The notes beneath the pieces are model-generated. The model saw nothing but the letters and a program-made list of their open reading frames with translations. It did no database searches and had not been told where the DNA came from. A program made the translations under genes and the position numbers. DNA of 63,378 nt, filler included. It is 8 parts of 8 records of this genome, joined end to end, with 100 filler letters (N's around TTAATTAATTAA, not from the genome) between each part and the next. Parts side by side here need not be neighbours in the genome. Positions count along the whole stretch, not along the records: positions 49,192 to 56,886 come from SRR31156797_32138; 7 more parts are not named here. One strand, given 5' to 3'. Below, piece by piece: positions 4,057 to 56,986 of this stretch. Position 1 is the stretch's first letter, and every line of letters begins with the position of its first letter.

Positions 4057-4072
4057 TGCAAGAAAGGTGCCT
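4057..4072 (-). promoter_or_regulatory. Sigma-54 (-24/-12) promoter upstream of the PEP-CTERM gene
   Basis: Minus strand AGGCACCTTTCTTGCA with exact GG-N10-GC spacing. PEP-CTERM genes are commonly sigma-54/PrsR controlled. Confidence 0.7.
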
Positions 4073-4568: not shown

Positions 4569-4988
4569 ATGAAAGTTGTTTTAGAGTCTGATCCGGGAAT
4601 GGAGGAAATTGAATTTTTAGAACGGCAATTGCTCCAGTTTAACTGCGCCCGGATTGATAACTATTCCTATGAAAATTTTATTTTTAAGGTAATTGGTGAG
4701 TCAAATTCAATGACAGCCGGTATCCATGGGCAGATAGGCGGCGGCTGGCTTTATATCGCAAGTCTCTGGGTCAGGGAAGATCTTCGGGGGCAGGGGGTTG
4801 GAAAAAGGCTTTTGTCTTTGGCTGAGGAAAGGGGTGTTGAGAAAAAATGCGGCGGTGCGTATCTGTATACATACAGTTTTCAGAGCCCCGGGTTTTATGA
4901 GAAATCAGGCTATGAGGTTTTCGGGGCCTTGGAAGAATTCTGCGGTAGTCATTCCAAGCTTTATATGAAGAAACGTTTGCTTTTGTAA
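4569..4988 (+). CDS. GNAT family N-acetyltransferase
   Basis: Acetyl-CoA motif LWVREDLRGQGVGKRLL and TYSFQSPGFYEKSGY. Confidence 0.9.
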   Translation: MKVVLESDPGMEEIEFLERQLLQFNCARIDNYSYENFIFKVIGESNSMTAGIHGQIGGGWLYIASLWVREDLRGQGVGKRLLSLAEERGVEKKCGGAYLYTYSFQSPGFYEKSGYEVFGALEEFCGSHSKLYMKKRLLL

Positions 4989-6812: not shown

Positions 6813-6912
6813 NNNNNNNNNNNNNNNNNNNNNNNNNNNNNNNNNNNNNNNNNNNNTTAATTAATTAANNNNNNNNNNNNNNNNNNNNNNNNNNNNNNNN
6901 NNNNNNNNNNNN
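6813..6912. other. Artificial contig spacer
   Basis: N-run with central TTAATTAATTAA (stops in all six frames). Confidence 0.98.
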
Positions 6913-16546: not shown

Positions 16547-16646
16547 NNNNNNNNNNNNNNNNNNNNNNNNNNNNNNNNNNNNNNNNNNNNTTAATTAATT
16601 AANNNNNNNNNNNNNNNNNNNNNNNNNNNNNNNNNNNNNNNNNNNN
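16547..16646. other. Artificial contig spacer
   Basis: N-run with TTAATTAATTAA. Confidence 0.98.
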
Positions 16647-25928: not shown

Positions 25929-26028
25929 NNNNNNNNNNNNNNNNNNNNNNNNNNNNNNNNNNNNNNNNNNNNTTAATTAATTAANNNNNNNNNNNNNNNN
26001 NNNNNNNNNNNNNNNNNNNNNNNNNNNN
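25929..26028. other. Artificial contig spacer
   Basis: N-run with TTAATTAATTAA. Confidence 0.98.
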
Positions 26029-37618: not shown

Positions 37619-37718
37619 NNNNNNNNNNNNNNNNNNNNNNNNNNNNNNNNNNNNNNNNNNNNTTAATTAATTAANNNNNNNNNNNNNNNNNNNNNNNNNN
37701 NNNNNNNNNNNNNNNNNN
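37619..37718. other. Artificial contig spacer
   Basis: N-run with TTAATTAATTAA. Confidence 0.98.
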
Positions 37719-43251: not shown

Positions 43252-43351
43252 NNNNNNNNNNNNNNNNNNNNNNNNNNNNNNNNNNNNNNNNNNNNTTAAT
43301 TAATTAANNNNNNNNNNNNNNNNNNNNNNNNNNNNNNNNNNNNNNNNNNNN
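43252..43351. other. Artificial contig spacer
   Basis: N-run with TTAATTAATTAA. Confidence 0.98.
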
Positions 43352-43863: not shown

Positions 43864-44223
43864 ATGGCAACGATACTGGTATTGGACGATGTGTTGGATG
43901 CGGTTATCCTGATTAAGCGGATCCTGTCGAGAAAAGGGCATGAGGTGATCACCTTTACCGAGGAGGAGGAGGCCATTGCCTATGCCGCCTCCCATCCGGT
44001 GGACCTAGCCATTCTGGACATCAAGCTCAAACGGCTCAGTGGAATAGAGGTGCTGGAAATGCTGAAAAAGGCCGTACCTGCGATCCGGGTTCTTATGCTT
44101 ACGGGGTATCCCTCCCTGGAGACGGCCCGGGAGGCCCTGGATCTCGGCGCAGGAGCGTATTGCGTCAAACCCATTGACATGGATGAGCTGGAGGAGAAGG
44201 TGGCGGCCCTGCTGGCCGACTAG
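43864..44223 (+). CDS. Single-domain response regulator
   Basis: ILVLDD, LDIKL (phospho-Asp), MLTG, YCVKP. Confidence 0.92.
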   Translation: MATILVLDDVLDAVILIKRILSRKGHEVITFTEEEEAIAYAASHPVDLAILDIKLKRLSGIEVLEMLKKAVPAIRVLMLTGYPSLETAREALDLGAGAYCVKPIDMDELEEKVAALLAD

Positions 44224-45227
44224 CGCCTGGACCGCCTTGACAGGCGGGCGATCACTTGGAAGTACTCCTCGATAAATTTTCCGGACACCACCTGGGCAAT
44301 GGAGAAGCGAAGGGGTGCCTTACCCGGAAAGCGACCGGAGAGAGCCAGGAACACATTGCTCGAAAGGGTGGTGAGCCGGGCCTGGAGGGTGTGCTCGTCG
44401 ATCAGGCCCCGGGGGACCCCGTAGATACGGCACCGGATGGGCCGGAATTCATGGAGCATTCCTCCATCATCCTGAAACAATGGACAGGGGGCGGTCCGGT
44501 TGCTTTCCATGTTCCGGGCTTTCGCGATCACGGCCTGCCTGAGGTCGCTTGCCAGGCTCCTGTTGATTTTCCCGTGGATGTAGATCGCCTCGATCAATTG
44601 GATCTCAAATGGTTTAAAACAGCATTGGCTGTGCTTTGAACCGCATTCAAACCGGTATCCGCATGCCTTGGACGCCGCTTCCACATGGACGGCGACTTTT
44701 TGAAACAGTGCTTCATAATCGTCAATATAGGGGGCAAGATCCACGGTATTGCGATGTTCGAGACGCGGTTCCCGGATGGTCAGGGTGCCGGCGCTTTTTC
44801 CATACCGTTTCAATAGTTTCTTCTGGGTGGCGCTGGTCGGGGCCGCCCGGGTGAGTTTCAGCTTTTGGGCCGCGCCCTTCAGGTCGAGTCCCTTTCTCAA
44901 AAGATAGGAGGAGATCAGGGTGCCGCTTCGTCCGATGCCGTGGCGGCAGTGCACCAGCACCTTTTTGCCCAGGTAGAGGGCCTCGTCCAGCCAGGCAAGG
45001 CCGTTCTCCATCTCTTCCATGGCTGGGGCTTCGTCGTCCCACACGGGAAGATAGAACACCTCGAACCCGGAGCCTTCCTCCAACTGGTGGAGATCGCTGA
45101 ATTCGGCGCAGAGGTTGACAATGGCATCGATGCCCTGGTCGCGGATGAGATCGAGTTCTGCATAGGACATGGGGGCACGGCCAACGGCAAGCTGGGGCGT
45201 CACCCAGGAGAGGTTGTAGTCAGGCAT
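44220..45227 (-). CDS. Dual-specificity protein phosphatase fused to a YkgJ-like cysteine-cluster domain
   Basis: PVWDD acid loop and VHCRHGIGRS (HCx5R); C-terminal CGSKHSQCC..CPLF..RPIRCR. Confidence 0.88.
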   Translation of the reverse strand: MPDYNLSWVTPQLAVGRAPMSYAELDLIRDQGIDAIVNLCAEFSDLHQLEEGSGFEVFYLPVWDDEAPAMEEMENGLAWLDEALYLGKKVLVHCRHGIGRSGTLISSYLLRKGLDLKGAAQKLKLTRAAPTSATQKKLLKRYGKSAGTLTIREPRLEHRNTVDLAPYIDDYEALFQKVAVHVEAASKACGYRFECGSKHSQCCFKPFEIQLIEAIYIHGKINRSLASDLRQAVIAKARNMESNRTAPCPLFQDDGGMLHEFRPIRCRIYGVPRGLIDEHTLQARLTTLSSNVFLALSGRFPGKAPLRFSIAQVVSGKFIEEYFQVIARLSRRSRR

Positions 45228-45250
45228 AGGGCCCTCCTTCTTCTAAACAC

Positions 45251-47758
45251 TCAATCGTTGGTTGAGCTGAAATCATACCTTCCGTTCATGAAGTCGTCAA
45301 CAAAGACGTCCACGTCGGCATGCTCCGTCAGGTACATATCCATCAACCGGGTGGTCCCCAGAAGACGGCCCACCATATCCAGGCGGTTTGTGAGGGTTGC
45401 CGGTGTTCCCATCTGAAACCTGGCATCCACCAGGTCTCCCTTGGCATGGAGCCCGAAGCCCAGCTGCTTCAGGACCCCACGGATAAAGCCAGCCCTCAGG
45501 GCCCGGCCCTGGGCATCCCCGCCGCCCCCCGAGAACCTGAACAGGATATAGTTATCCGTCGGGATGCTCGTGCAGAGGGTGTCAAGGATCACGAAGTGGT
45601 AGCCGAATCTCAGGTTGAGGTTGAGATAGTCGCTGGAAAAAACGGCATAACTGCCGAACCGGGGGGAGTCGGCACTGATGATTCCCCCGGCCATGACGAT
45701 CCTGTCGTGGCTTTCCCAGTCAAAATGGGTGAAGTGTGACCAGCGGATACCGGGGTGCTTTAAACCGTTGAACAACGCCTTTAACGGAACGCTTGTGATC
45801 TCTGCCAGGGTCACCTGCTTAGGGTCGGCAGCGGTTTCCGCGATGCCGCCCCCCACATCCAGGAGATAGAAGAGCATGGGAAGCCCGGATATCAGCTTTC
45901 GGGCGCCTTTTTTCCTTCCACCCTGGCGGTTTCCCTGGGCGAACATCTCCTGGATCGCCGTCTCATGGGCAAACCGGATGATGTCGTGCATGGAGCGGCA
46001 CCCTTCCGGGGTGAATCCGGGGGCGTCCGGGTCCACCAGGCTCAAGGGGGAGATGAACGCCATGAGATTCTTCAGGGTTTTCATGAAGGGGCTTTTTTCA
46101 AAATCAATTGTCCCATCTTCTCCCGGCGCGGGACCGGGCCCCACCTCTCCCTGGTAGACAACCCGGTTGTCGGCATCCACGGTGACCCGGTCTCCCTGTA
46201 TCAGCGTCGAGGTGGCGTTGCCGGTGTTCACAAGTGCGGGGGTGTTGAATTCCCTTGCCACCGTTGCCAGATGTCCTGAATAGGAGCCAAGATCGGTAAC
46301 GATGGCGCTTGCCCGCTCCAGTGCAACCACTAGATCCGGGGAGGCGCTTCGTGATACCACCACGGCCCCCCTGGGAACATTGTTGCTGTCAAGGGGGGGG
46401 ACCGCTTGAAACACCCGGCCGTAGCCCCTGCCTGTAGAGGCGGTCTCTCCCCCCCGGATCAGAACGGGATCGGCGATTGTTCCGGACGCGATCGGCTCAG
46501 GGACAGGCCGGGGAGGCGGGGCGAGGTTCAGGGGTCTGGACTGAAGAATGAAAAGGCGGCGGGCATCGTCCATGGTCCATTCCACGTCCTGGGGAGAGCT
46601 GAAAAAGGCCTCGAGGAGGACTCCCCAACGGGCAAGTGTTGTGATCGTCCGGCTGTCCAGGTTATTTGTCTTTGGGTGCTTCCGGCTGTCATGGATATCG
46701 CCAATGGTTCCGTCGGAGTTCCTTTCTGCCAGAACCGGGCGGTCCGGGGAGGCGGCTCCCCCCATAAGGGTGTCACCCAGTCCCGCAACCGTATGGATCG
46801 ACAGGGGGCCTGCATCCGGGCTGTGGATGGGGCGGGTGTAGACGATGCCGCTGGCCATGGGATCGATCATTTCAAGGACCAGGACCGCCATGGGGGTCGC
46901 GTGGTCAAGGAGGCCGCGGCTGATTCTGTAAAACAGGGCCCGGGCAGTGTATTTGCTCGCGATTACCTGCTTGTAGGCATGGACGATTTCGGCTTCATTC
47001 ACATTGAGAAGGGTCTGGTACTGGCCGGCAAAGGAGGCGAGGGAGTCCTCTCCCACACCGCTGCTGCGAACGGCCAGGGCCAGGGGGGCGTTGGGGTGGG
47101 GGGACAGGGCGGCAACCGCCTGGGCCATGGCTGACGTCACCCCACTGGGCACACTGGCTGTCATGATCATGGACGTGAGCTTCCGGGCCGATTCCGTAAG
47201 GTTCCGGGGGCAATGGATATCGAGCCGGGCAAGGGTTTCGTTGATCTCCCGGTTCAGGCGGTTGTGCTGGATGAAACAGTGAAACGCGTTTGTGGTGACC
47301 ACGAATCCCCGGGGCACGGGCAGGCTGAGCTCCCGGCGGATCCGGGCAAGGTTCAAGGCCTTTGTTCCTACAAGGTCAAGGGCGTCAAGGGGAATTTCGT
47401 CAACCTGGAATGAAAAGGGGGGGCCGGTATCCACCTTGCCCGGGCTCAGCAGGAACCGCACATAGGCGTCGAATTTTCTGTAATAGGTTTCAAGGGTTGC
47501 GTTGCGGGCGGGGTGCATTTTCAAAAGGGATGCCACCATGGCGGAAACGCATGGCGCCAAGCGGTCGTATTCCTTTGCAACGGCCTGGAGATCCACCCGT
47601 GCGCGGTTGCAAAATATCGCTTCGAGTTCTGCCATGGTTTCGTGGGCGCAGGTATCCTGGGCCAGGAGGGACTTGAACGCCTCATATTTTTCTTTCACAA
47701 GGGTTCCCGGCGAAAATACCTGATAGGTCCAGAATTTGAACATGTTCTTGATCAGCAT
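45251..47758 (-). CDS. PEP-synthase/PPDK-like protein (ATP-grasp + phospho-His swivel + non-canonical C-terminal domain)
   Basis: VGTKALNL, VPRGFVVTT, AVRSSGVGED..SFAGQY, QDVEW, LQSRP; swivel SGHLATVAREF. Start moved to ATG 47758 after a GGGGGAG RBS. Confidence 0.88.
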   Translation of the reverse strand: MLIKNMFKFWTYQVFSPGTLVKEKYEAFKSLLAQDTCAHETMAELEAIFCNRARVDLQAVAKEYDRLAPCVSAMVASLLKMHPARNATLETYYRKFDAYVRFLLSPGKVDTGPPFSFQVDEIPLDALDLVGTKALNLARIRRELSLPVPRGFVVTTNAFHCFIQHNRLNREINETLARLDIHCPRNLTESARKLTSMIMTASVPSGVTSAMAQAVAALSPHPNAPLALAVRSSGVGEDSLASFAGQYQTLLNVNEAEIVHAYKQVIASKYTARALFYRISRGLLDHATPMAVLVLEMIDPMASGIVYTRPIHSPDAGPLSIHTVAGLGDTLMGGAASPDRPVLAERNSDGTIGDIHDSRKHPKTNNLDSRTITTLARWGVLLEAFFSSPQDVEWTMDDARRLFILQSRPLNLAPPPRPVPEPIASGTIADPVLIRGGETASTGRGYGRVFQAVPPLDSNNVPRGAVVVSRSASPDLVVALERASAIVTDLGSYSGHLATVAREFNTPALVNTGNATSTLIQGDRVTVDADNRVVYQGEVGPGPAPGEDGTIDFEKSPFMKTLKNLMAFISPLSLVDPDAPGFTPEGCRSMHDIIRFAHETAIQEMFAQGNRQGGRKKGARKLISGLPMLFYLLDVGGGIAETAADPKQVTLAEITSVPLKALFNGLKHPGIRWSHFTHFDWESHDRIVMAGGIISADSPRFGSYAVFSSDYLNLNLRFGYHFVILDTLCTSIPTDNYILFRFSGGGGDAQGRALRAGFIRGVLKQLGFGLHAKGDLVDARFQMGTPATLTNRLDMVGRLLGTTRLMDMYLTEHADVDVFVDDFMNGRYDFSSTND

Positions 47759-47931
47759 GGATACTCCCCCTGATATGGAGTCTGATGCTGGTGACAATGG
47801 ATCGTCTCTAAAAATTTACCAGGAGTTATTGTGAAACGCAAGCCTGAATCGTTTCACAAGGATTGAATCCGGGCGAGGGTTCGTGGTAAAGGAAGGGCTT
47901 AAAAAAAACACTGAAATGTCCGGAGGATGGA

Positions 47932-49059
47932 GTGGATAAAACAAGGGGAGAGATCAGCCAGGAGCTTGAGCAGGGTATCCTGGCAATGCTTTACCACGAA
48001 TGGGAGCAGGTGGTATGGGGATTGAGCCTGAGGGAGCCCACCCTTGCGGCCCGGTTGAAGCGGCCGGGGATTCTCATCAGTGATATGAAGCGCACCCTGG
48101 GCCAATGGGACCCCTTTCTGGGGGAGATTACCCTGGGCCGGGAGCTTGTGCGAAACGGCCGCTGGGATTCCGTGTGCGAGGTGCTCCGCCACGAGATGGC
48201 CCACCAGCTGGCATCAACATTTGCCGATACCCGGAACGAGAAGCCCCACGGCAGTCGCTTTGTTGCGTGCTGTGCTGCCATCGGCGCCAATCCCAAAGCC
48301 TCGGGCTCTTACAAAAGCCTGGAGGAGCGGGTGTGGGGGGAGGGCGCGTCCGAGAACGACCGGATTATGCTCAAGGTCAAGAAGCTCATGGGGCTCGCCA
48401 CTTCCCGGAACCGGCACGAGGCCGAGCTGGCCGCGGCCAAGGCGGGGGAGCTCATCGCAAGGTACAACATCGAGCACATCAAATCCCATGAAAAGAGGAA
48501 CTTCGAGAGCATCATCATCACCCCCCCCTCCCTGAAACGCACCCAGGCCGAAAGCCTTGCCGCCGGCATCCTCGAGGCCCACTACTTTGTCAAACCGGTC
48601 TGGATACCCGTGTATCTCCCGGACCGGGAAAAGATGGGACGGGCCCTGGAGATCAGCGGCACCCCCACCAATGTGAGAATCGCGGATTACGTGTTCGCTT
48701 TTGTACTCAACTACGCCTTGAAGAGCTGGAAGGATTACAAGGCCGCCAACCCCTCCTGCCGGGCCCGGTCCGGATACATGACAGGGGTTGTTCTTGGGTT
48801 CAGGCAGAAGCTGGACCAGAGCCGGGAACAGCGGTGCGCACAGACGGAAGAGGGTCGTGACCGGGCGCTGGTCCCCGTCAGGGACGGGCAGCTTGCCGCC
48901 TATGTCGGCCAGCGCTATCCAAGGGTCAGGAGCACCAGCAGGGTCCATGCCAGCACCAGCAGGGAGGCCTACAGCGATGGCCTTGAAAAGGGCAAGGATC
49001 TTGTCGTGTCCAAGGCCATCGCCGAACGCGGCGGCAACAGGGGAAGGCGGCTCACCTAA
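47932..49059 (+). CDS. SprT-like metallopeptidase fused to DUF2786
   Basis: EVLRHEMAHQ (HExxH) and PHGSRF; KVKKLMGLATS.NRHEAELAAAKAGELIARYN matches the DUF2786 pattern. Confidence 0.82.
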   Translation: MDKTRGEISQELEQGILAMLYHEWEQVVWGLSLREPTLAARLKRPGILISDMKRTLGQWDPFLGEITLGRELVRNGRWDSVCEVLRHEMAHQLASTFADTRNEKPHGSRFVACCAAIGANPKASGSYKSLEERVWGEGASENDRIMLKVKKLMGLATSRNRHEAELAAAKAGELIARYNIEHIKSHEKRNFESIIITPPSLKRTQAESLAAGILEAHYFVKPVWIPVYLPDREKMGRALEISGTPTNVRIADYVFAFVLNYALKSWKDYKAANPSCRARSGYMTGVVLGFRQKLDQSREQRCAQTEEGRDRALVPVRDGQLAAYVGQRYPRVRSTSRVHASTSREAYSDGLEKGKDLVVSKAIAERGGNRGRRLT

Positions 49060-49091: not shown

Positions 49092-49191
49092 NNNNNNNNN
49101 NNNNNNNNNNNNNNNNNNNNNNNNNNNNNNNNNNNTTAATTAATTAANNNNNNNNNNNNNNNNNNNNNNNNNNNNNNNNNNNNNNNNNNNN
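49092..49191. other. Artificial contig spacer
   Basis: N-run with TTAATTAATTAA. Confidence 0.98.
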
Positions 49192-49192
49192 A

Positions 49193-49762
49193 GGGGCCCC
49201 TTTTGATTACAAGGGCTTGTTCCAGGTGGAATGGTTTTTCGGGTTTATTGTGTGGTGGTTTGCCTGGCTTCAAACGGCGGCCCTTACTTTTGGCGGTTGG
49301 CCCTTCTACAAGGTCGGAAAAGTGCTTCACCCAATTCTTCTGACCGTTGTGACGGGCGTAATGGGATATGTTTCCTGGAGCGGCGGGCTGGCCCTCGGAA
49401 TCGGACCGACTTTCTCTTTCGGCGCACTGGGTGCGACCGTCATCATTTGGTCTCTTTTTCAGCCGATATTCCTGGAATGGTATCCCTTCAGGAATATCAC
49501 CCAACCCTTGCGGGGAGTATACGGTTTTCTGCTCGGCATCGTGTTCGTTCCTTTGTGGATCGGCTTTCTAAAATACGGGATCCTGGTGCCGATCTTGCCT
49601 AAACTCAAGGCAACCGGCTTCCCCTTTGACGCCAACTCACTGATGGTATTTTTTGGACTGCACTGTTTTGCACCATGGTTGCTGGTCCATAACTTCTTCT
49701 GGCTTCGGGCACCCCTGGTGCCGCCGGAGCCGCCATTGGGACCCGAGGAGACAAGACCGTAG
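49193..49762 (+). CDS. Polytopic membrane protein, possible permease, 5' truncated
   Basis: Frame open from the contig edge; about five Trp/Phe-rich TM segments with an internal repeat (GWPFYKVGKVLHP / WYPFRNITQPLRG). Confidence 0.65.
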   Translation, partial: GAPFDYKGLFQVEWFFGFIVWWFAWLQTAALTFGGWPFYKVGKVLHPILLTVVTGVMGYVSWSGGLALGIGPTFSFGALGATVIIWSLFQPIFLEWYPFRNITQPLRGVYGFLLGIVFVPLWIGFLKYGILVPILPKLKATGFPFDANSLMVFFGLHCFAPWLLVHNFFWLRAPLVPPEPPLGPEETRP

Positions 49763-49900
49763 CCGGCTTCTGAGTTGGTCGGGGAGGGAGATTCTTTAAT
49801 TGCTTGTAACGGGAGGTGAAACGGCCGGTTCAAAATTGATAGGACCATCCCTTTTCATTTACCCATTTTTTAAAACCTTTTAATTTCGGAGGGACAAAAC

Positions 49901-50920
49901 ATGAAAAACGGACACAAAGTAATCGACATTCACAATCATTTTTATTCTAAGCCCTGGTTGGACTATCTGGCCACAAGAAAAGTAGACCCGTCCTTTAAAT
50001 GGGAAACTGAAACATCAGGGCGCGCCTACATCGACGGTGTCCCAACAGGTCATGTGGACAAAGCCGGTACCTTTGATATCGATGCAAGGGTCGCCGATCT
50101 TGACACTTACGGCATCGACACCCAGGTCATTTCTCACACATGTCCGGGTGTGGGTGAAGTTGACGCGGATGTGGCCGATGAGTGGGCCCCCAAACTGAAT
50201 GACCTGTTTGTGGGTTTCTGCGAGAAATACAAGGGTCGGCTGTACTTTCTGGCCACAGTCTCTGCCCAAAATGTTGACTTATCAATAGCGGAATTGGAAC
50301 GGGTCGCCAAAACCGGATACTGCAAGGGCGTGCAGGTGTTTTCCAGTATAAACGGCGAACTGATCAGTGAAGAAAAATTTCATCCGATTCTCGGAAAAGC
50401 TGCTGAGCTGGGCCTTACTGTCAAAGTACATCCCGCATTTGAATGCCTTGCTGGGGAAGCCTGTAGAAAGGCCAAATTACCCCAGCAGCTGTTCGGTTTT
50501 ACCCTGGATACCACCATGGCCGTTGTCAACCTGATCTATAAAGGCGTATTTACGAAGTATCCCAAACTCAATGTTGTCCATTCTCACCTTGGCGCCATGG
50601 CTCCTTATATGATGGGTCGCATCAACACGGCTTACAAGCGCTATTCCAAAGAATTCGATATCAATTGTGGTGGCCTGCCCTCAGAGATTTATCAAAAACA
50701 TGTCTGGGTGGATACGCTTTCCATGCATGTGCCGGCCATCAAATGTGCTGTGGAGTTCATGGGCATCGATCATATCCTGTTCGGCACCGATTATCCCCAC
50801 CGCGCTTCAGGTTCGGTGGAAGACAACATGGCCATACTGGATGATCAAGTCGGTTTTTCTCAAGAGGATAAAGAAAAATTTTATTGGAAAAACGCCACGG
50901 CTCTGTTCAACCTTGATTAA
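49901..50920 (+). CDS. Amidohydrolase-2 family enzyme (ACMSD / non-oxidative decarboxylase-like)
   Basis: IDIHNH (HxH), GIDTQVIS, VHP, FGFTLDTT, HSHLGAMAPY..GR, LFGTDYPH, NATALF. Confidence 0.85.
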   Translation: MKNGHKVIDIHNHFYSKPWLDYLATRKVDPSFKWETETSGRAYIDGVPTGHVDKAGTFDIDARVADLDTYGIDTQVISHTCPGVGEVDADVADEWAPKLNDLFVGFCEKYKGRLYFLATVSAQNVDLSIAELERVAKTGYCKGVQVFSSINGELISEEKFHPILGKAAELGLTVKVHPAFECLAGEACRKAKLPQQLFGFTLDTTMAVVNLIYKGVFTKYPKLNVVHSHLGAMAPYMMGRINTAYKRYSKEFDINCGGLPSEIYQKHVWVDTLSMHVPAIKCAVEFMGIDHILFGTDYPHRASGSVEDNMAILDDQVGFSQEDKEKFYWKNATALFNLD

Positions 50921-51060
50921 TTTCCCAAGAGCCATATAGACCTGGGGAACCAGTTCTTGAATAAACAACCGGGGCTGGTTCCCCTATGAAGCAAGTCAGC
51001 GTGCTCTGACCTTGGCGTTGGTATGGTAAGTGAAAACACATCATATGGAGGAAGAAGGAA

Positions 51061-52788
51061 ATGGGAGGAATCCACCAAGTTAGTGAACCTGATGTTACAC
51101 GATCCGTTCAATTGGATCAGGGAGACGATAAAATATTTTGGTTCAGGGATGAACTGCACAGTCCTTATCCGGTGACAGCCTTTGCAATGAGCACCATTCA
51201 GAAAGGGCACACGTGGGGCTACGCCCTTTCCGCGGAGGAAGTCCAATTGCCCCCTAGCCGGGGAGCCGCGGTCAAGAGCCACGACAATTACGTCTATCTC
51301 GGTTTTGTGGGGATCACCGACCCTGAAGAGATCGAAAAAAGAGCTCAATCATTCGGTCCGTTTATCGAAACAAGCATCGATAATTGGGATGTTTATTACG
51401 GCAACGCCATGAAAGAGGCGGAGTGTCTGACCATACCTCTGGCCAGGGCCGATCTGGGAAGCATGTCCTATTCTCAACTCGTAGAACATTTGAAAGAATG
51501 CCAGCGAGTGAACATGCGATGCTGGTATTTGCATTTTATGACCATGTACGTTGCTGATATCGTCTATATTGGCGGCGAGGAGTTCGTCAAGGGTCACGGC
51601 ATGGAAGAAAAAGATTATTCCAGGATGCTCAAGGGATTCGATACTTACGGCCTGAAAAGCGACCGGGGACAGTACCTGCTGGCCAAGTCCGCCATAGAAA
51701 AAGATGAAGTCTTGGCCTTGTTCGAAAGCGCTTCCACCCCAAGTGAAATCTTGGAGAAAATCGAGCATAGCGAGCAAGGGAAGGAGTGGAAAAAGGACCT
51801 GAACGTCTATCTCAACGAATTCGGTCATAGAAGCACAGCCGCCGTTTTGGATACTAACTTTCTCACCTGGTATGAAGACCCTACTCCAGTCATCGGTAAC
51901 GTCCAGACGCTTTTGCCCAAAATAAAGGAAGGGTATGATTTCGACGCTATGCGGGAAGAAACAATCAGGCTTCGAGAGGCTGCCATTTCAGATTTTCGGG
52001 CCAAACTGAGCGGAGAAGACCTGAAGGTGTTTGAAAAAGCGATTTCTAAATGGCAGAAAGCCTACACTTTCAATGAGGATCACTGGTTCTTTTTCGAGCA
52101 GATGAACTGGAGTAGTCTGCACTATATCGGCATGGAAATCGGCAAACGGCTGCTCTCTTTGGGAATTATTGAAGAACAGATGGACGTGTTTCACCTTACT
52201 TACTGGGAGTTGGTCGAGATTCTGCAAGATCTTGCCGAATCCGCGGACGTCGGGGCCTATGTTTATTCACTTTTATACAAGCCTTTAGCGGCATCTAGAA
52301 AAAAAGATTATGAGGCGGCTAAAGCCGAACCTGGACCTTCGTTTATTGGTCAAATACCTGAGCGGATGGATGACCCTATTGCCATCAAGGTGTTTGGCAT
52401 AACCGACTTTGTCCTGGATAAAGCCAAAAGAGAAATGGCGGGAGAAACAGTTGAATTAGGAGATACTCTCAAGGGCTTTTCCGGCGCTCCAGGCATAGTG
52501 GAAGGAGCGGCCCTCGTGGCAATGGATCACGATGATCTGCCCAATATTAAACCTGGCTCTATCGTGGTCTGTCCTTATACATCACCGGCCTGGACTCCCA
52601 TTTTTCCCAAACTGAAAGCAGTCGTCACCGATAGCGGCGGCATGCTGACCCACGCGGCAATTACTGCTCGAGAATACGGCATCCCGGCCGTGGTGGGAAC
52701 GTGGGTCGCCACGCAGCAAATTAAGACCGGTGATATCATTCGGGTAGACGGAACAGAGGGAACTGTCGAAATTCTGTCAAGGGCATGA
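51061..52788 (+). CDS. PEP-utilising enzyme, phenylphosphate synthase alpha-subunit-like (substrate domain + phospho-His swivel, no ATP-grasp)
   Basis: N-terminal WFRDELHSPYPVT, central EFGHRS..WYEDP and EDHWFF..DVFHL, C-terminal GFSGAPGIVEG..TSPAWTPIF..TDSGGMLTHAAITAREYGIPAVVG. No VRSS or FAGQ nucleotide-binding motifs. Confidence 0.78.
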   Translation: MGGIHQVSEPDVTRSVQLDQGDDKIFWFRDELHSPYPVTAFAMSTIQKGHTWGYALSAEEVQLPPSRGAAVKSHDNYVYLGFVGITDPEEIEKRAQSFGPFIETSIDNWDVYYGNAMKEAECLTIPLARADLGSMSYSQLVEHLKECQRVNMRCWYLHFMTMYVADIVYIGGEEFVKGHGMEEKDYSRMLKGFDTYGLKSDRGQYLLAKSAIEKDEVLALFESASTPSEILEKIEHSEQGKEWKKDLNVYLNEFGHRSTAAVLDTNFLTWYEDPTPVIGNVQTLLPKIKEGYDFDAMREETIRLREAAISDFRAKLSGEDLKVFEKAISKWQKAYTFNEDHWFFFEQMNWSSLHYIGMEIGKRLLSLGIIEEQMDVFHLTYWELVEILQDLAESADVGAYVYSLLYKPLAASRKKDYEAAKAEPGPSFIGQIPERMDDPIAIKVFGITDFVLDKAKREMAGETVELGDTLKGFSGAPGIVEGAALVAMDHDDLPNIKPGSIVVCPYTSPAWTPIFPKLKAVVTDSGGMLTHAAITAREYGIPAVVGTWVATQQIKTGDIIRVDGTEGTVEILSRA

Positions 52789-52944
52789 AATATTGATTGG
52801 AGAAAGCGTGCTTAGGAGCGAACGGACCGGCAAGATAAGCCAAGGGGGAATCTGTTATTCCCTGAATAAAGACTCTTCAGCTATTCGCTCCTGAGCCTTC
52901 TTTGAGTTTGGAGTAAAGCAAAAATCGAAAAAGGATAAAAAGGT

Positions 52945-53682
52945 ATGTTGAAAATAAAATGGTGCGGCATTGATTTTGGACAGTGCCTCATGGAGCCCAC
53001 CGGGCTCCGGAACCATCTGACAATCGGGGATATCTACAAAGAAATGGGAAACCCCGAAAAGATAAACGATGCCATTAAACGGTACCGACAGGTGGTCGAG
53101 GCGTACGGCGGTTACAGCCTGCTCAAGGAGTCCAACCGCGATAAAATCCATAGCTATGTTCTTGAAGGAAATGACAATGCCATGGATTTGTTCGGCCTCA
53201 AGGAGAAGGAACATCTAAGTGCCGGTGTAGGCGCAGAAGAAGCCTTGATATTCCTGAAAGAAAACGGTGTTGATGTGAACATCGTCGCCGAGCTGAAAAA
53301 AACCCTCGGGCAGATGGAGAAAAACATCATCACCCGATTCATCACCGCCAAGGGATTACGGCAATATTTCAATTTTGTCTATACACCCCAAGGCAAAGTA
53401 GACCTGAAAACAGGCGTTGTGGATGATCGTTATAAAGGCAAAACCAAACAGAGCGGCCTGATGTACGTCATGTTGGTCGAAGAGCTGGAAAAAAGGAATA
53501 TTGCTCCTTCGGAAATGATGATGGTGGGCGACAAAATCGCCACCGACATAGAACCGGCCAAGGCGGCGGGAATTATCACCGTCCAATATACGGGATACAT
53601 AGATATGGGACCTTCCGTGGCCGATTACCGCGTATCCAGCTTTCATGAACTCAGAGAGCTTATAGAGGGGATGGACAAATGA
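52945..53682 (+). CDS. HAD-superfamily hydrolase
   Basis: Motif I IDFGQCL, motif III Lys (KTK), motif IV MVGDKIATDIEPAKAAG. Confidence 0.8.
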   Translation: MLKIKWCGIDFGQCLMEPTGLRNHLTIGDIYKEMGNPEKINDAIKRYRQVVEAYGGYSLLKESNRDKIHSYVLEGNDNAMDLFGLKEKEHLSAGVGAEEALIFLKENGVDVNIVAELKKTLGQMEKNIITRFITAKGLRQYFNFVYTPQGKVDLKTGVVDDRYKGKTKQSGLMYVMLVEELEKRNIAPSEMMMVGDKIATDIEPAKAAGIITVQYTGYIDMGPSVADYRVSSFHELRELIEGMDK

Positions 53683-54032
53683 GCGGAAAGAATATTTTGG
53701 CCGTTAAGGTGACTTATAAAGACGGAACAACTTTGGAGGTGGATGCCGCGGATATTCCTGAAGTTGCTAGAAGAGCACTGGAAACCGCGGGAAATAAGGC
53801 AGCGGAGTCCGGTCTTCCGGATTCAGTTGATCGATATGTTCTTGTGGAATGGAACGATGGTTGGAAGGAGACCTATCGGCTTCCTGAGGACGTGACGGAT
53901 CTCAAGCGATATTTCGTGATTGATCGCCAGGAGTCGGTCGGTCGCCTTTTCTTTAACCGTAAAGATAATTATCCTGAATTGTTACAAATTATTAGAAAAC
54001 CTCACGAAGTAAAAAAGGCATATCTGATATGA
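53679..54032 (+). CDS. Hypothetical protein (117 aa)
   Basis: ATGA overlap with the upstream HAD stop; plausible composition; no family recognised. Confidence 0.7.
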   Translation: MSGKNILAVKVTYKDGTTLEVDAADIPEVARRALETAGNKAAESGLPDSVDRYVLVEWNDGWKETYRLPEDVTDLKRYFVIDRQESVGRLFFNRKDNYPELLQIIRKPHEVKKAYLI

Positions 54033-54310
54033 AATCATTTACATTTACATCAGCGGACAAAACAAAACTCGGCGATAAAATCGAAACCGAATATGAGGTG
54101 TTCGAAGATACTGGCGGCGCTGAGAATTTCAAAAAGGAAATTGATGCCTTCTTATCGAGTCAGGAGGGATTGGCAGCCGGTCAGATAAAGGATGATGCAC
54201 ATCTGCTCAAGGAATGCTGGGCGATCAGAGAACACTTGCGAATATTTGACGGCAAAGAAAGTGAAACAGCTATTGGGTTTATCCGGTCCATAATCGCTGG
54301 AAAATCGTGA
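54029..54310 (+). CDS. Hypothetical protein (93 aa)
   Basis: 4-nt overlap with the upstream gene; no family recognised. Confidence 0.65.
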   Translation: MKSFTFTSADKTKLGDKIETEYEVFEDTGGAENFKKEIDAFLSSQEGLAAGQIKDDAHLLKECWAIREHLRIFDGKESETAIGFIRSIIAGKS

Positions 54311-54437
54311 AAGCTGGAAGACCAGTGAGAGCGTAATGATATCTTAACCAATTGCTGTCTCAAGGTTTTCCTTGGTAATCCCGGCAAGCATTTAGAAGAG
54401 TCATATCTAAATTGTCGGGTCGGGAAAGGTGTGGTCA

Positions 54438-55226
54438 ATGAAGGAAATAAAGGGAAAAAAGGGCTTCATATGCGACATGGACGGTGTGATTTACCATGGA
54501 GATTCTTTGTTGCCGGGCGCGCGCGAGTTTGTGGAATGGCTTAAGGATGAGCAGAAGGAATATATTTTTCTGACCAACAACAGCCAAAAAACACGTCAAG
54601 AACTCAGCCAAAGACTTAAAAGGCTGGGCCTTGAGGTCGACCCGTTGCATTTTTATACAGCCGCACTGTCGACAGCTAGCTTTCTGGCCAGTCAGCAAAA
54701 GGGGGGCGACGCATTCGTCATCGGAGACGCCGGCCTTACGAACGCCCTGTACGAAGCCGGTCTGGTCATAAATGACGTTGATCCGGACTTTGTGGTCGTC
54801 GGTGAAAGCGCCTCCTATTCATATCATAAAATCACACGCGCCATTAACCTGGTTTTAGCCGGGGCCAGGCTGATCGGGACCAATCCCGACAGCTTTATGC
54901 CCTCCGGAAATGAGCGTTATCCCGGTTGCGGGGCTATGATGGCCCCCATTGAACGGGCCACCGGCAGAAAAGCCTATTTTATGGGTAAACCCAACCCACT
55001 TATGATTCGCCATGCCTTGAGATGCTTGAATTGCGAACGAGAGGATACGGTGTTTATTGGCGATTCCATGGAAACCGATATCATTGCCGGCATCAATTCC
55101 GAGGTAGAAACGGTTTTGGTTCTTACTGGAGCGACGGCCAAAGAGAACTTGCAGATGTATCCGTACAGACCGCGCTACATACTCAATGGAGTAAGCGATA
55201 TTCTTACTTTGTCGAAGGAGGAATAA
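54438..55226 (+). CDS. HAD-IIA (NagD-like) phosphatase
   Basis: CDMDGVIY, FLTNNS, IGTNPD, MGKPNP, IGDSMETDI, LVLTG. Start placed at ATG 54438. Confidence 0.92.
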   Translation: MKEIKGKKGFICDMDGVIYHGDSLLPGAREFVEWLKDEQKEYIFLTNNSQKTRQELSQRLKRLGLEVDPLHFYTAALSTASFLASQQKGGDAFVIGDAGLTNALYEAGLVINDVDPDFVVVGESASYSYHKITRAINLVLAGARLIGTNPDSFMPSGNERYPGCGAMMAPIERATGRKAYFMGKPNPLMIRHALRCLNCEREDTVFIGDSMETDIIAGINSEVETVLVLTGATAKENLQMYPYRPRYILNGVSDILTLSKEE

Positions 55227-55230
55227 AACC

Positions 55231-55767
55231 ATGAGCGAAGCCAGGGACAAATTAACGCGAAAGAAAGTCTTGATTGTCGATGACGAACAGGATGTATTGG
55301 ATACGCTGGAAGATTTGATCTCTGGATTTGAAATTATAAGGGCCGCTTCTTTTGCAGAGGCGAAGGCGGCTCTTGAATCTCAAGTCCCGGATATTGCGAT
55401 TTTGGATATCATGGGTGTCGATGGCTACGGGCTTCTGGAGATTGCCGTTGAAAAAGAGGTATTGGCGGTCATGCTGACCGCAAACGCCTTAAGTCCTGAA
55501 AATACGGCCAAATCTTTCAGAAAAGGGGCCGCCTACTTTATCCCTAAAGAGATGTTATCCGATATAAACACTCTGTTGAAGGAACTGCTGAAGGCAAAAG
55601 AAAAGGGGGAAGTCTACTGGAGTACCTGGATGGACAAATTTGAACCCTTTTATGAAAAAAGATTCGGCCCGGACTGGAAGGAAAGTGAGAAGACCTTCTG
55701 GGATACACTTGCCAAACAGGATTGGCGATTGGCGGCGGTTCTTCGGACGCAGGAGGAGAATGAGTAG
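55231..55767 (+). CDS. Response regulator (REC plus short Trp-rich C-terminal extension)
   Basis: LIVDDE, LDIMG, MLTA, FIPK. Confidence 0.88.
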   Translation: MSEARDKLTRKKVLIVDDEQDVLDTLEDLISGFEIIRAASFAEAKAALESQVPDIAILDIMGVDGYGLLEIAVEKEVLAVMLTANALSPENTAKSFRKGAAYFIPKEMLSDINTLLKELLKAKEKGEVYWSTWMDKFEPFYEKRFGPDWKESEKTFWDTLAKQDWRLAAVLRTQEENE

Positions 55768-55877
55768 ACCCGCAATTTAGTCCAAGAATATGGTCACAAG
55801 AAGACGGGCGGCAATATTTCCTCGGTTCAAAGTGCAATTTCAGAAGTATTACGGGGAGGTATCTAAATGGGGGGAGA

Positions 55878-56886
55878 ATGAAGACAAGACAATCACGTTT
55901 CGGCATGTCAGCTAGAATTTCAATCATTAGTGGTTTAACGGTCTTCATTCTGTTGCTGGCCAGTAGTATCATATTCCTCAAACTTGAAACGAACCTGGTT
56001 GAATATCTGATCGACAATCATATCGAAAGCGTTGAAACCGCCATTGATGAACAGGCCGGGAATCAAAGGGTCGATTTGAGCGTCGGCATGAAGGTGAATG
56101 CTGAGATATGCGGCGGTATCGCTTCGAGTTTTCTTTACAATTTTGATGAAGAGGGGCTCAAAAAGGCCCTTTTTCCATATATGAAACTGCCGGCCCTCAG
56201 CGCCATACAAGTGGTGGACAGTAGCAACAAGCCTTTCCTGGCCATTTGGCGTGCGCCGGAGGTTCAATCGAGCAAGAAACTTCCCAAGGATCTGAAACTG
56301 AATAAGGATCTTTCCTGGGGGGTGAAATCTGTTTTCGAAAAAGAGCCGGTGGGGGAGCTGCGCATCTTTTTTACGGATGCTCTGCTCAAAGCCAAAATAC
56401 AAAAAAGTAAGAAAAAAATGCAAAAGGAGGTCAGCGTTTTCCAGGGCGTCGCGGACAAAGGGTTTCGTGACGCGCTTGTCGGCCAGGTGGCGGTTATTTT
56501 GGGGGTGGTTCTGACACTGGTCCTCACCATCAGTTTGAGTCTGCGAGTTATCGCCAGCAAACCACTCAATCGCATTATTGCGGGTTTGCAGGGAGCAGCC
56601 GAGCAGGTGGGCGCCGCCTCTGAGGAAGTCTCGTCTTTCAGCCAGGAGCTGGCCAGGGGGGCTTCGGAACAGGCGGCAGTCATTGAGGAAACAGTGGCCA
56701 CCCTGGAGGAAATTTCCTCCTTGACCCGTCGGAACGCCACAAATGCTTCTCAGGCCAGCGAGACCATGTCAAAAGAAGCTTCGAAGAACTTAGAGAAACT
56801 CAAAAAGCATATGGAAAAAATGAAAACAGCCATTGCCTCCACCGTGGAATCCAGTCATGAAACCGCAAAGATCATCAAGACCATTG
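55878..56886 (+). CDS. Methyl-accepting chemotaxis protein, 3' truncated
   Basis: Two TMs, then SQELARGASEQAAVIEETVATLEEISS and SSHETAKIIKTI (start of the signalling hairpin). Confidence 0.9.
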
Positions 56887-56986
56887 NNNNNNNNNNNNNN
56901 NNNNNNNNNNNNNNNNNNNNNNNNNNNNNNTTAATTAATTAANNNNNNNNNNNNNNNNNNNNNNNNNNNNNNNNNNNNNNNNNNNN
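56887..56986. other. Artificial contig spacer
   Basis: N-run with TTAATTAATTAA. Confidence 0.98.

Follow-up and report, generated by a model that had tools for sequence, protein, structure and literature searches.

The phenylphosphate synthase and carboxylase systems (Pps/Ppc) provide a precedent for the logic of phosphorylating a substrate and then carboxylating it (PMC6114531). PpsABC with PpcABCD in Thauera aromatica, and likewise the homologous systems for phenol and aniline in Desulfatiglans anilini, resemble the cluster described here in several ways: the dikinase is split into an alpha subunit with the swivel His and a beta subunit with the ATP-grasp, the intermediate is phosphorylated, a HAD-type phosphatase component plus a small protein of unassigned role stand by the carboxylase, and a CoA ligase acts afterwards, leading into the benzoyl-CoA pathway (PMC6114531, PMC7500099). 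The Hpe pathway of Rhodococcus rhodochrous GD02 has the same order of steps, with a kinase (HpeHI), a carboxylase that is described as acting on the phospho-intermediate only (HpeCBA), a NagD-like phosphatase (HpeD) and a CoA ligase (the synthetase HpeE), and both Hpe and CreHI/CreD of Corynebacterium have in common with the locus the kinase superfamily and a NagD-like HAD phosphatase (PMC9618137).

Rifampin phosphotransferase (RPH) and PigC/RedH also show a presumed substrate-binding region followed by a C-terminal swivel-His domain, as in the alpha subunit of this locus (partial NCBIfam matches), but they are single polypeptides of ~860-890 aa with an N-terminal ATP-grasp, whereas the ATP-grasp protein of the cluster is encoded by a separate gene in relatives. 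Regarding the amidohydrolase, LigW, the gamma-resorcylate, 2,3-dihydroxybenzoate and salicylate decarboxylases, ACMSD and IDCase share with it the fold family and the complete set of catalytic residues. Those Amidohydro_2 enzymes of the ACMSD/LigW type that have been characterised act as decarboxylases, with an equilibrium unfavourable to carboxylation, which counts against the reading proposed below, and the reversible metal-dependent ones work on carboxyl groups in the ortho position to a hydroxyl. None of these decarboxylases is known to involve a kinase, phosphatase or aryl phosphate, and literature searches found no such link.

The window, namely the whole stretch of 63,378 nucleotides analysed, is a chain of contigs with N44-TTAATTAATTAA-N44 spacers at the joints. 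The whole gene set lies on a single 7.7-kb contig (49192-56886), so that its start at 49193 is the contig end, which cuts a membrane-protein gene at the 5' side. All genes described in the earlier note are present where it had placed them, on the + strand, and its remark that the contig holds neither a beta subunit nor UbiD is correct for these 7.7 kb, the missing beta being a point against the pathway proposed below. An ATP-grasp protein (848 aa) found 3 kb upstream in the window belongs to another contig, with a GC content of 0.58 against 0.48 for the cluster contig. In a public assembly the identical stretch (0 differences) is contained within a 29,738-base contig, with 22,043 bases more upstream. 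The contig is best read as one piece of a conserved operon for anaerobic catabolism, whose beta subunit is presumably encoded upstream of it and whose carriers appear to be anaerobes, bacteria of oxygen-free sediments.

This view of the contig draws on related DNA, where the operon encodes the membrane protein, Amidohydro_2, HAD, HAD partner and alpha together with three further proteins, namely a beta subunit with the ATP-grasp, a flavoenzyme of the OYE family and a CoA ligase for aryl acids. The order membrane protein, beta, Amidohydro_2, HAD, HAD partner, alpha, OYE and CoA ligase is found in L105, L106 and L108, L107 shows the segment from beta to alpha in the same order, and the genes also occur together in L001, L015, L049, L050, L021, G200, G259 and G313; nine genomes carry beta, amidohydrolase, HAD, partner and alpha on one contig. 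Among the 47 loci with an alpha at least 41.5% identical (L007 dropped), Amidohydro_2 is present in 32, beta in 25 and UbiD in none, whereas the 42 loci with an alpha at most 39% identical include Amidohydro_2 once and UbiD six times. Dozens of unrelated contigs carry these genes together, an arrangement far beyond chance. One well-flanked clade member, L014 (20 kb), lacks an amidohydrolase, which counts against the carboxylation reading.

The alpha protein (51061-52788, 575 aa) has PF00391, the PEP-utilizers swivel, at residues 496-567 as its sole Pfam domain, with no PPDK_N ATP-grasp detected by Pfam, and its best NCBIfam model (PRK08296.1-5, 320 bits) scores below cutoff. Residues T530 and H531 are invariant among 20 homologues. 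We read it as the probable alpha subunit of a split dikinase of the phenylphosphate-synthase type, with a C-terminal phospho-histidine swivel domain and an N-terminal region that presumably binds the substrate. It is separated from the UbiD-linked alphas in the trees: the 30 alphas of at least 41.5% identity form exactly one side of a branch with SH-aLRT 99, which holds 20 of the 21 amidohydrolase-linked rows and none of the 7 UbiD-linked ones, and a FastTree of 75 rows gives the same separation. Genome G001 contains both kinds, a 30%-identical paralogue adjoining UbiD and a 61% orthologue adjoining Amidohydro_2. Thus, the genes do co-occur elsewhere and the alpha stands apart from UbiD-linked alphas, the opposite of the two findings that the earlier note had named as speaking against its proposal, and the beta subunit that it considered necessary is indeed encoded beside the cluster genes in relatives.

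The Amidohydro_2 enzyme (amidoB, 49901-50920, 339 aa; PF04909, 1.2e-34) has LigW as its best match to any solved chain (E 3.7e-33, none better), followed by ACMSD over full length (5e-28) and IDCase (4e-26), 2,3-dihydroxybenzoate and gamma-resorcylate decarboxylases being also among its closest solved relatives. Its residues H11, H13, H177, H229, R240 and D297 align to H9, H11, H177, H228, R239 and D294 of ACMSD, which we take to bind the metal, to serve as catalytic His and, in the case of the Arg, to bind the carboxylate, and all six are invariant in eight cluster paralogues. A His-Arg pair right behind the metal-binding Asp is invariant in the cluster amidohydrolases while absent in the aligned ACMSD and LigW, and identities of 56-65% relate amidoB to the alpha-adjacent amidohydrolases of L001, L020, L021 and L022. 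On these grounds amidoB is proposed as an ACMSD/LigW decarboxylase-type enzyme and a candidate carboxylase. In the spacer between amidoB and alpha, a perfect 10-bp inverted repeat can be read from the sequence (50944-50984, arms 50944-50953 and 50975-50984); it has no T-run and was not reported by the terminator scan.

The alpha gene is followed by a predicted HAD-family phosphatase (52945-53682, 245 aa; PF00702, 36.6 bits, cutoff 26.4), which shares 47-61% identity with its counterparts in L001, L015, L021, L049 and L050. Its motif I, Asp-x-Gly-Gln-Cys, is atypical, keeping the nucleophile Asp while the general-acid Asp+2 is replaced by Gly; the D, G and Q of this motif, like the G-D...T-D of motif IV, do not vary across 36 family members, and no phenylphosphate carboxylase delta or KDO-8-phosphate-phosphatase model of NCBIfam matched. 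Two ORFs of 117 aa (53679-54032) and 93 aa (54029-54310) come next, each with a 4-bp overlap with the preceding gene and neither with a family match, and they probably represent one 209-aa HAD-partner protein that is split here. The former matches the HAD-partner family profile (hhalign 99.7% probability, E 3.7e-26) and is 37-45% identical to natural split N-halves. The latter, a diverged C-terminal half, remains below significance against the full-length profile, whereas blastp relates it to P0261 (5e-12, 31.5% over 92 aa) and P0272 (5.5e-8), natural split C-halves which that profile does detect; L021 shows the same split, of 117 and 92 aa with 4-bp overlaps. It has lost the R-E-G-K-K..H motif that is invariant in its family, which counts against the pathway proposed below.

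The partner adjoins the HAD in 17 of 19 HAD loci under a strict rule, which supports it as an apparently obligate neighbour of the HAD, and its confident structure model predicts no known fold, nor has it a Pfam family. The pair also stands beside a UbiD and Pps-like cluster in L103, which fits general aryl-phosphate handling; its presence with no nearby alpha, beta or amidohydrolase in L100, L101 and L104 counts against. The phosphatase slot is kept across loci and filled by unrelated families, namely the HAD with its partner in anaerobe-type loci and, in 12 triad loci, an IMPase-family protein whose gene begins at most 60 bp after alpha. The last predicted phosphatase, a HAD-IIA NagD-like protein (54429-55226; TIGR01460, 155 bits, cutoff 100), has a 69% identical homologue 5 kb from alpha in L015 and none in L105-L108. 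The next gene, 4 bp further on, encodes a response regulator without a homologue in the related loci.

The NagD-like HAD is possibly a second phosphatase of the pathway. The earlier doubt that it might be unrelated is borne out in that only the window and L015 combine the cluster with a close NagD homologue, but it is weakened by the NagD-type phosphatases that serve this kinase family in the Hpe system, as there described (PMC9618137). Apart from this point, comparison supports the earlier interpretation in part, namely in the co-occurrence of the genes, the beta subunit of relatives, the separate alpha clade, the conserved phosphatase slot and the constant place of the small proteins beside the HAD, of which they may be accessory subunits.

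The truncated membrane ORF (49193-49762, 189 aa of the 3' part) has ~5 hydrophobic segments and matches no Pfam or NCBIfam family, and atlas entries for it are only clusters of hypothetical proteins. Its full-length homologues (369-394 aa, about 9-10 hydrophobic segments) are 34-53% identical to it and belong to the related clusters (L015, L036, L047, L049, L050, L105, L106 and L108), and this polytopic protein is the probable uptake component, importing the substrate.

Genes beyond the contig inform on the substrate class. CoA ligases of L033, L105 and L001 have the 2,3-dihydroxybenzoate-AMP ligase model as their best match, though below its cutoff (583, 388 and 368 bits, cutoff 724), the L035 ligase belongs to the benzoate-CoA ligase family (523 bits, cutoff 375), a gentisate-1,2-dioxygenase-like bicupin comes next in five loci, and Oah/BamA is above its cutoff in L021. 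These features make the pathway product look like an ortho-hydroxy aromatic acid, and the ortho-carboxyl handling of Amidohydro_2 decarboxylases matches this ligase and dioxygenase context, which suggests that hydroxy-aromatic acids and benzoyl-CoA chemistry are involved rather than N-heterocycles or amines. Hydroquinone or phenol would be our guess for the substrate.

Altogether, we lean, with some reserve, towards a pathway in which a phenolic substrate is phosphorylated with ATP, carboxylated beside the hydroxyl by a non-UbiD enzyme, freed of phosphate and ligated to CoA. Judging from their family, alpha and the separate beta would convert the hydroxyl of a phenolic or enolisable substrate and ATP into the substrate phosphate, AMP and Pi. 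The metal-dependent amidohydrolase would then replace the UbiD-type phenylphosphate carboxylase, forming a C-C bond with CO2 next to the hydroxyl to yield a 2-hydroxy-aromatic acid. The HAD and its partner would take off the phosphate, either making the phenolate inside the carboxylase, like the delta and gamma subunits of phenylphosphate carboxylase, or hydrolysing the carboxylated phospho-product, like HpeD; as a point against, the separate phosphatase suggests that phosphate release may not be done by the amidohydrolase itself. The thioester would be formed by a CoA ligase for aryl acids, resembling 2,3-dihydroxybenzoate-AMP ligase, and would pass to an OYE flavoenzyme, a molybdopterin enzyme and enzymes of beta-oxidation or of the benzoyl-CoA pathway, all of them encoded in related loci only. 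While gene content, neighbourhood conservation, catalytic residues and the separation from UbiD-linked kinases are observed, every reaction and the substrate are inferred.

Such a pathway would differ from Pps/Ppc in having an ACMSD/LigW-type Amidohydro_2 enzyme where the UbiD/UbiX carboxylase stands, an alpha of a separate clade, a HAD devoid of Asp+2 with a 209-aa partner instead of the 10-kDa gamma subunit, and no CBS-type synthase gamma subunit seen in the cluster. With respect to Hpe, HpeCBA is reported to need biotin and ATP and to carboxylate an acetyl side chain (PMC9618137), whereas the candidate here is a metal-dependent amidohydrolase, no biotin enzyme being seen in the annotated loci, and, unlike those of Hpe and Cre, the cluster hosts appear anaerobic. 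If true, it would be a new oxygen-free route of aromatic breakdown, in which the logic of the phenylphosphate and Hpe systems is varied by an enzyme type that has no known part in such a CO2 addition.

An unlikely alternative is that the phosphate merely protects or retains the substrate, as with Cre, the amidohydrolase decarboxylating a (phospho-)hydroxy-aromatic di- or mono-acid before dephosphorylation and CoA activation. The closest solved relatives, all decarboxylases, and the dedicated phosphatases kept in the clusters agree with it, and kinases that only shield a phenol exist, CreHI being reported as an example (PMC9618137). However, the tightly linked CoA ligase needs a carboxyl later, which is simpler if added, the core has no oxidising enzyme that would need a protected phenol, and spending two ATP equivalents ahead of an exergonic decarboxylation makes little sense.

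It is improbable that the substrate is instead an enolisable alicyclic or aliphatic ketone, converted to an enol phosphate as in PEP synthase and by the amidohydrolase to a beta-keto acid, with PEP-carboxylase chemistry, a CoA ligase, SDR, acyl-CoA dehydrogenase and hydratases completing the degradation. SDR, acyl-CoA dehydrogenase and OYE genes, present in many loci, would fit an alicyclic or ketone substrate too, in L015-L018, L049, L050, L104 and L105 they lie around the core together with genes for enoyl-CoA hydratase and 3-hydroxyacyl-CoA dehydrogenase, and PEP synthase is the ancestor of the kinase family. Nonetheless, the aryl-acid character of the ligases, the gentisate-dioxygenase-like neighbour and the Oah/BamA gene speak against it, as does the use of aromatic or vinylogous acids by known amidohydrolase relatives.

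Even less probable is an Amidohydro_2 enzyme that makes no C-C bond but hydrolyses or hydrates its substrate, in the manner of lactonases, LigJ hydratase or phosphoesterases, in a cluster that only phosphorylates and hydrolyses; the family does include LigJ hydratase and meta-cleavage-product hydrolases, with weak matches to 6e6i (5e-9) and 6dxq (4e-5), but decarboxylases match better by more than 20 orders of magnitude and none of the ACMSD catalytic residues varies, the Arg that binds the carboxylate included. Finally, unrelated neighbours, or an alpha that is a PigC/RedH-type condensing enzyme or an RPH-type drug-inactivating phosphotransferase, can be given very little credence, since its partial NCBIfam matches (RPH 123 bits, PigC/RedH 110-121 bits) fall far under the cutoffs of 999-1350 bits, those enzymes have the fused ATP-grasp that alpha lacks, and the neighbourhood is catabolic and kept over dozens of loci.

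All genes described in the earlier note, which had proposed a cluster coupling phospho-activation to (de)carboxylation by a non-UbiD enzyme, were found on the contig 49192-56886 (7.7 kb, GC ~0.48), to which the finding is confined and whose genes lie on the + strand. It opens with a membrane-protein gene truncated by the contig end, of which the final 189 codons are present. There follow an Amidohydro_2 enzyme (339 aa, 49901-50920), the phenylphosphate-synthase-alpha-like swivel-His protein of 575 aa, hereafter alpha (51061-52788), a HAD protein of 245 aa (52945-53682) and two ORFs of 117 and 93 aa (53679-54310) with no family match, each sharing 4 bp with the gene before it. Further along are genes for a NagD-like HAD-IIA protein and, 4 bp behind it, a response regulator, and an incomplete gene similar to those of methyl-accepting chemotaxis proteins. 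The contig is present with 0 differences in a public assembly, as part of a 29,738-base contig whose sequence continues upstream for another 22,043 bases. Runs of two studies labelled as marine sediment metagenome contain fragments almost identical to the amidohydrolase gene (4 differences over 573 bases and again 4 over 607), which is a hint of habitat only.

The 63-kb window contains seven spacers of the form N44-TTAATTAATTAA-N44 (6813-6912, 16547-16646, 25929-26028, 37619-37718, 43252-43351, 49092-49191 and 56887-56986), being thus a chain of at least 8 separate contigs, and its GC content jumps between ~0.31 and 0.60 from piece to piece. Genes across a spacer are hence not physically linked, and may derive from different source organisms. 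The gene for beta, the separate ATP-grasp (PPDK_N) subunit, was found neither on the 7.7-kb contig nor elsewhere in the window. Promoter and terminator scans stayed at chance level (8 versus 8.5 and 7 versus 9.6, respectively). The spacer separating the amidohydrolase gene from alpha contains a perfect inverted repeat of 10 bp with a loop of 21 nt (50944-50984); it has no T-run and was not called as a terminator by the scan.

Related DNA was drawn from a scan of genomes (L001, a locus of a Desulfatiglandales MAG), a scan of metagenomes (77 loci) and genome searches (further regions), all related loci being compared with the window proteins by tblastn. The clearest arrangement was seen in four genomes (L105-L108), of which L105, L106 and L108 display a compact co-directional operon of eight genes, encoding, in this order, a membrane protein (369 aa), beta (319 aa, PPDK_N only), an Amidohydro_2 enzyme (343 aa), the HAD (245 aa), a 222-aa member of the family to which the two small window ORFs belong, hereafter the partner, alpha (573 aa), an OYE flavoenzyme and a CoA ligase; in L105, genes for a molybdopterin enzyme and a 3-hydroxyacyl-CoA dehydrogenase come next. 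L107 shows beta, Amidohydro_2, HAD, partner and alpha in the same order, while in L001 beta, a first amidohydrolase type (amidoA), HAD, a 209-aa partner, CoA ligase, a second amidohydrolase corresponding to the window enzyme (amidoB), alpha and a reductive-dehalogenase-family protein follow one another. The components are present in other orders in L015, L021, L049 and L050, and in genomes G200, G259 and G313 a beta-amidoA-HAD-partner block sits 10-14 kb from alpha. Beta, amidohydrolase, HAD, partner and alpha thus share one contig in nine genomes. Additionally, a triad of beta, amidoA and alpha, often with a CoA ligase ahead, is frequent in peat and soil metagenomes. Current labels are generic for all components ('pyruvate, water dikinase', 'FMN phosphatase YigB', 'hypothetical').

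Considering sequence and gene context, on which all functional assignments here are based, we lean towards an ATP-driven phosphorylation and carboxylation system with an Amidohydro_2 enzyme in place of UbiD. In such a system the HAD-partner pair would take off the phosphate, either as a phenolate-generating subunit or after carboxylation. The window enzyme, proposed as the carboxylase, scores 120.8 bits for PF04909 (cutoff 26.4), and its matches in the PDB (E-values from about 1e-26 to 4e-33) include LigW (3.7e-33), ACMSD (5e-28, full length) and IDCase, with dihydroxybenzoate, resorcylate and salicylate decarboxylases matched as well. These decarboxylase matches also accommodate the reading in which the phosphate is a protecting group and the Amidohydro_2 enzyme decarboxylates, to which we assign a minor though real share of probability beside the favoured carboxylation.

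Regarding the product of the favoured carboxylation, the phosphatase gene slot is conserved and filled by unrelated families, namely the HAD with its partner in anaerobe-type loci and an IMPase-family gene in triad loci. In 12 triad loci the gene for the latter phosphatase (263 aa) starts no more than 60 bp downstream of alpha (L027, L028, L033, L037, L040-L046 and L056), and five loci (L033 and L041-L044) encode, after the IMPase-family protein, a gentisate-1,2-dioxygenase-like bicupin, which matches PDB entry 2d40 at 4.6e-72 and scores 272 bits with TIGR02272, under the cutoff of 442. CoA ligases were best matched by the 2,3-dihydroxybenzoate-AMP ligase model in L033, L105 and L001 (583, 388 and 368 bits, respectively, all below the cutoff of 724), the one of L035 belongs to the benzoate-CoA ligase family (523 bits, cutoff 375), and L021 contains Oah/BamA of the benzoyl-CoA pathway above cutoff. 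Together, the phosphatase slot, the ligases, the dioxygenase-like gene and the Oah/BamA context suggest that the product is probably an ortho-hydroxy aromatic acid, and known relatives of the amidohydrolase act on acids of this type. Conversions of hydroquinone to gentisate and of phenol to salicylate are guesses, and are those in closest agreement with the neighbouring ligase and dioxygenase-like genes. That the substrate is an enolisable ketone we regard, next to these neighbours, as improbable.

Two further neighbours were observed in some of the loci. A reductive-dehalogenase-family protein of ~370-395 aa, absent from the window, is encoded directly downstream of clade-I alpha in 6 loci (L001, 11247-12353; L014, 11148-12335; L019, L024, L025 and L026), with 212-224 bits for TIGR02486 (cutoff 160); it hints at halogenated phenols or another B12/Fe-S reaction in that branch. 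A cytoplasmic molybdopterin enzyme of ~683 aa is conserved beside the CoA ligase (L021, 3954-6002; L022, 727-2775; L105, 15966-18017; L106 and L096), its best model being formate dehydrogenase alpha (TIGR01591, 362 bits versus a cutoff of 666), and might remove or move a ring hydroxyl.

At the active site of the window amidohydrolase, residues H11/H13, H177, D297, H229 and R240 align with H9/H11, H177, D294, H228 and R239 of ACMSD, which we take to be the four metal ligands (HxH, His and Asp), the catalytic His228 and the carboxylate-binding Arg239. These metal, catalytic and Arg residues are invariant in 8 cluster paralogues, as is a His-Arg pair that immediately follows the metal-binding Asp and is absent from ACMSD and LigW. 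A purely hydrolytic role is given little credence alongside this set of residues.

To count the loci, L007 was left out (swivel-domain match only) and L096-L098 were merged with L016-L018, resulting in 47 loci whose alpha is at least 41.5% identical to that of the window. An Amidohydro_2 gene was observed in 32/47, a beta gene in 25/47 and UbiD in 0/47. Fourteen of the 15 loci without amidohydrolase are short contigs or have alpha at the contig edge, L014, with 9 kb either side of alpha, being the true exception. Among loci with distant alphas (at most 39% identity), amidohydrolase appeared in 1/42, UbiD in 6/42 and a NagD-like gene in 14/42; UbiD genes sit elsewhere in five genomes. The genes thus do occur together elsewhere, a point on which the earlier note had made its proposal depend, and that they are unrelated or biosynthetic seems, given 32 of 47 loci with the pair, very improbable.

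The only Pfam domain of alpha is the PEP-utilizers swivel (PF00391, 1.6e-25, residues 496-567), in which T530-H531 is invariant across 20 homologues; neither ATP-grasp nor PPDK_N was detected in the Pfam scan of its 575 aa. Its 45 relatives at 42-82% identity carry names no better than 'pyruvate, water dikinase'. Assignment as rifampin phosphotransferase (RPH) or PigC-RedH was discarded, with scores of 110-123 bits against cutoffs of 999-1350 and no fused PPDK_N. Phylogenies were built with FastTree for 75 alphas and with IQ-TREE for 63, after leaving out 12 near-duplicate or very long rows. In the IQ-TREE phylogeny, the 30 alphas at least 41.5% identical form exactly one side of a branch with SH-aLRT 99; this side holds 20/21 amidohydrolase-linked rows, 0/7 UbiD-linked and 0/7 NagD-labelled ones, and FastTree gives the same split. 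The division is also found within a single genome, G001, where an alpha orthologue of 61% identity lies beside Amidohydro_2 and a paralogue of 30% beside UbiD. Alpha thus stands in a separate clade and not among the UbiD-linked alphas, and the grouping with bona fide PpsA that the earlier note would have taken as refuting its reading was not observed. The sole amidohydrolase-linked row outside the clade, L083, was rejected as a member by the AU test (p 8.5e-94); there (1583-4963) an Amidohydro_2 gene and a distant alpha (31% identity) constitute an independent pairing.

The HAD belongs to a family of 106 proteins at E ≤ 1e-5, all generically labelled, and PF00702 is above cutoff. D10 and G195-D196...T200-D201 are invariant and the nucleophilic Asp is kept, while the general-acid position two residues after it in motif I is Gly in 36/36 aligned family members. 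From these motifs, the protein is predicted to be a HAD-fold enzyme and not a standard DxD phosphatase; a general acid could be dispensable when the leaving group is a good one, such as phenolate.

The 117-aa window ORF is the N-half of the partner family (hhalign 99.7%), and the 93-aa ORF a diverged C-half, matched to split C-halves at 5e-12 and not matched directly by the family profile. The same split occurs in L021, and the representatives of the family include natural split N-halves and C-halves. The family is small and well conserved, with 307 proteins found and just 100 representatives among 1.84 billion. The AlphaFold model of its fused form is confident (pLDDT 90.9, pTM 0.84). A Foldseek search of the PDB gave nothing at E ≤ 0.001, with TM ≤ 0.2 among the matches listed, the highest Z from VIA-align across 48,161 chains was 4.3 (none ≥ 5), and the atlas gave no usable match, results that are not proof of a new fold.

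HAD and partner genes are adjacent (≤ 100 bp) in 17/19 HAD loci, L107 failing this rule solely through a truncated match and L099 being the one real exception. In L103 (G316:C49, 6083-11939), a DxG HAD and a 168-aa form of the partner are flanked by a UbiD carboxylase gene on one side and distant alpha and beta genes (29-31% identity) on the other, and the module is thus common to UbiD-type and amidohydrolase-type clusters. The pair also sits beside UPF0261-family genes in L100 (7374-8801) and L101 (883-5630), contigs of 12-13 kb in which no dikinase or amidohydrolase was found, and in L104 it occurs without a kinase nearby.

Among known systems, in Thauera the alpha subunit requires the beta subunit, and phenylphosphate carboxylase depends on a delta subunit of the phosphatase family and also contains a gamma subunit (10 kDa) to which no role is assigned; D. 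anilini is without gamma, and phenol induces in it a 2,3-dihydroxybenzoate-AMP ligase with no assigned function (PMC6114531). For aniline, D. anilini employs UbiD-type subunits (PMC7500099). In the Hpe pathway (PMC9618137) a Pps-like kinase acts first, followed by a carboxylase that works only on the phospho-intermediate, then by a NagD-like phosphatase and lastly by a CoA synthetase. The present system differs from the canonical phenol pathway (Pps and Ppc) in that no UbiD was found in its 47 clade loci and its alpha belongs to a clade apart from the UbiD-linked alphas. A two-subunit Pps-like kinase, a NagD-like phosphatase and an AMP-forming CoA ligase make up the Hpe/Cre set, of which alpha and a NagD-like gene are in the window and beta and a CoA ligase were seen in relatives only; among the relatives, a close NagD homologue near the cluster occurs in L015 only. 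Neither a biotin-dependent carboxylase (as in Hpe) nor a P450 (as in Cre) was found in the Pfam/NCBIfam annotations of the window contig and the annotated loci (L001, L014-L016, L020-L022, L030, L033, L035, L044, L045, L049, L050, L052, L096, L099-L101 and L103-L105). The logic is that known from Pps/Ppc and Hpe; what is new is the candidate carboxylase, together with the DxG HAD and its partner, whose model matched no known fold.

Our search of the open literature found, among the papers listed, nothing linking this kinase family with Amidohydro_2 enzymes, and the co-mentions of phenylphosphate synthase and amidohydrolase were incidental only. A benzoate-induced 'bamU amidohydrolase' of Geobacter metallireducens (Gmet_2147) is mentioned in PMC1924859 and PMC6114531, and it might be related to the present system.

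If the favoured carboxylation is correct, the cluster would provide candidate genes for physiologically known aromatic carboxylations and a role for two uncharacterised families, the DxG HADs and the 209-aa family, and would improve aromatic-degradation annotation in sediment and peat metagenomes. To our knowledge, anaerobic activation of phenolics is known from very few enzyme systems, and for several carboxylations that physiological work described decades ago, for example that of hydroquinone to gentisate, genes are yet to be assigned. It might correspond to the as yet unidentified enzyme system that carboxylates hydroquinone to gentisate (or phenol to salicylate) in fermenting and sulfate-reducing bacteria, a reading more doubtful than the favoured one. 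Syntrophus gentianae ferments hydroquinone via gentisate, and it carries an annotated HAD of 55% identity; no identical match to the latter was found in 401 and then 96 genomes (best 76%), and its closest genomic relatives (71-76% identity) sit in a complete operon. Furthermore, such a system would show how ATP can drive cheap, oxygen-tolerant metal decarboxylases uphill, which makes it attractive for fixing CO2 onto phenols by biocatalysis. A bolder and more doubtful generalisation is that an ATP-driven aryl-phosphate carboxylase with a metal-dependent Amidohydro_2 core might add a third type of machinery for the biological carboxylation of aromatics to the UbiD/prFMN and biotin enzymes, the DxG HAD and the 209-aa partner being a general aryl-phosphate-handling module; if so, this module would also serve UbiD-type carboxylases in bacteria without phenylphosphate carboxylase gamma and delta subunits.

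Finally, the neighbouring piece of the window encodes an 848-aa protein with PPDK_N and swivel-His domains and an unassigned C-terminal region of ~300 aa (44220-47797, − strand). This ATP-grasp protein, apparently 3 kb "upstream", was considered as beta and rejected, because it lies on another contig, is fused and is just 28% identical to true beta. It directly adjoins a 335-aa dual-specificity (DSP/PTP) phosphatase, with which it forms a kinase/phosphatase pair. A 375-aa protein with SprT-like, DUF2786 and DUF7168 domains is encoded at 47932-49059 (+ strand).
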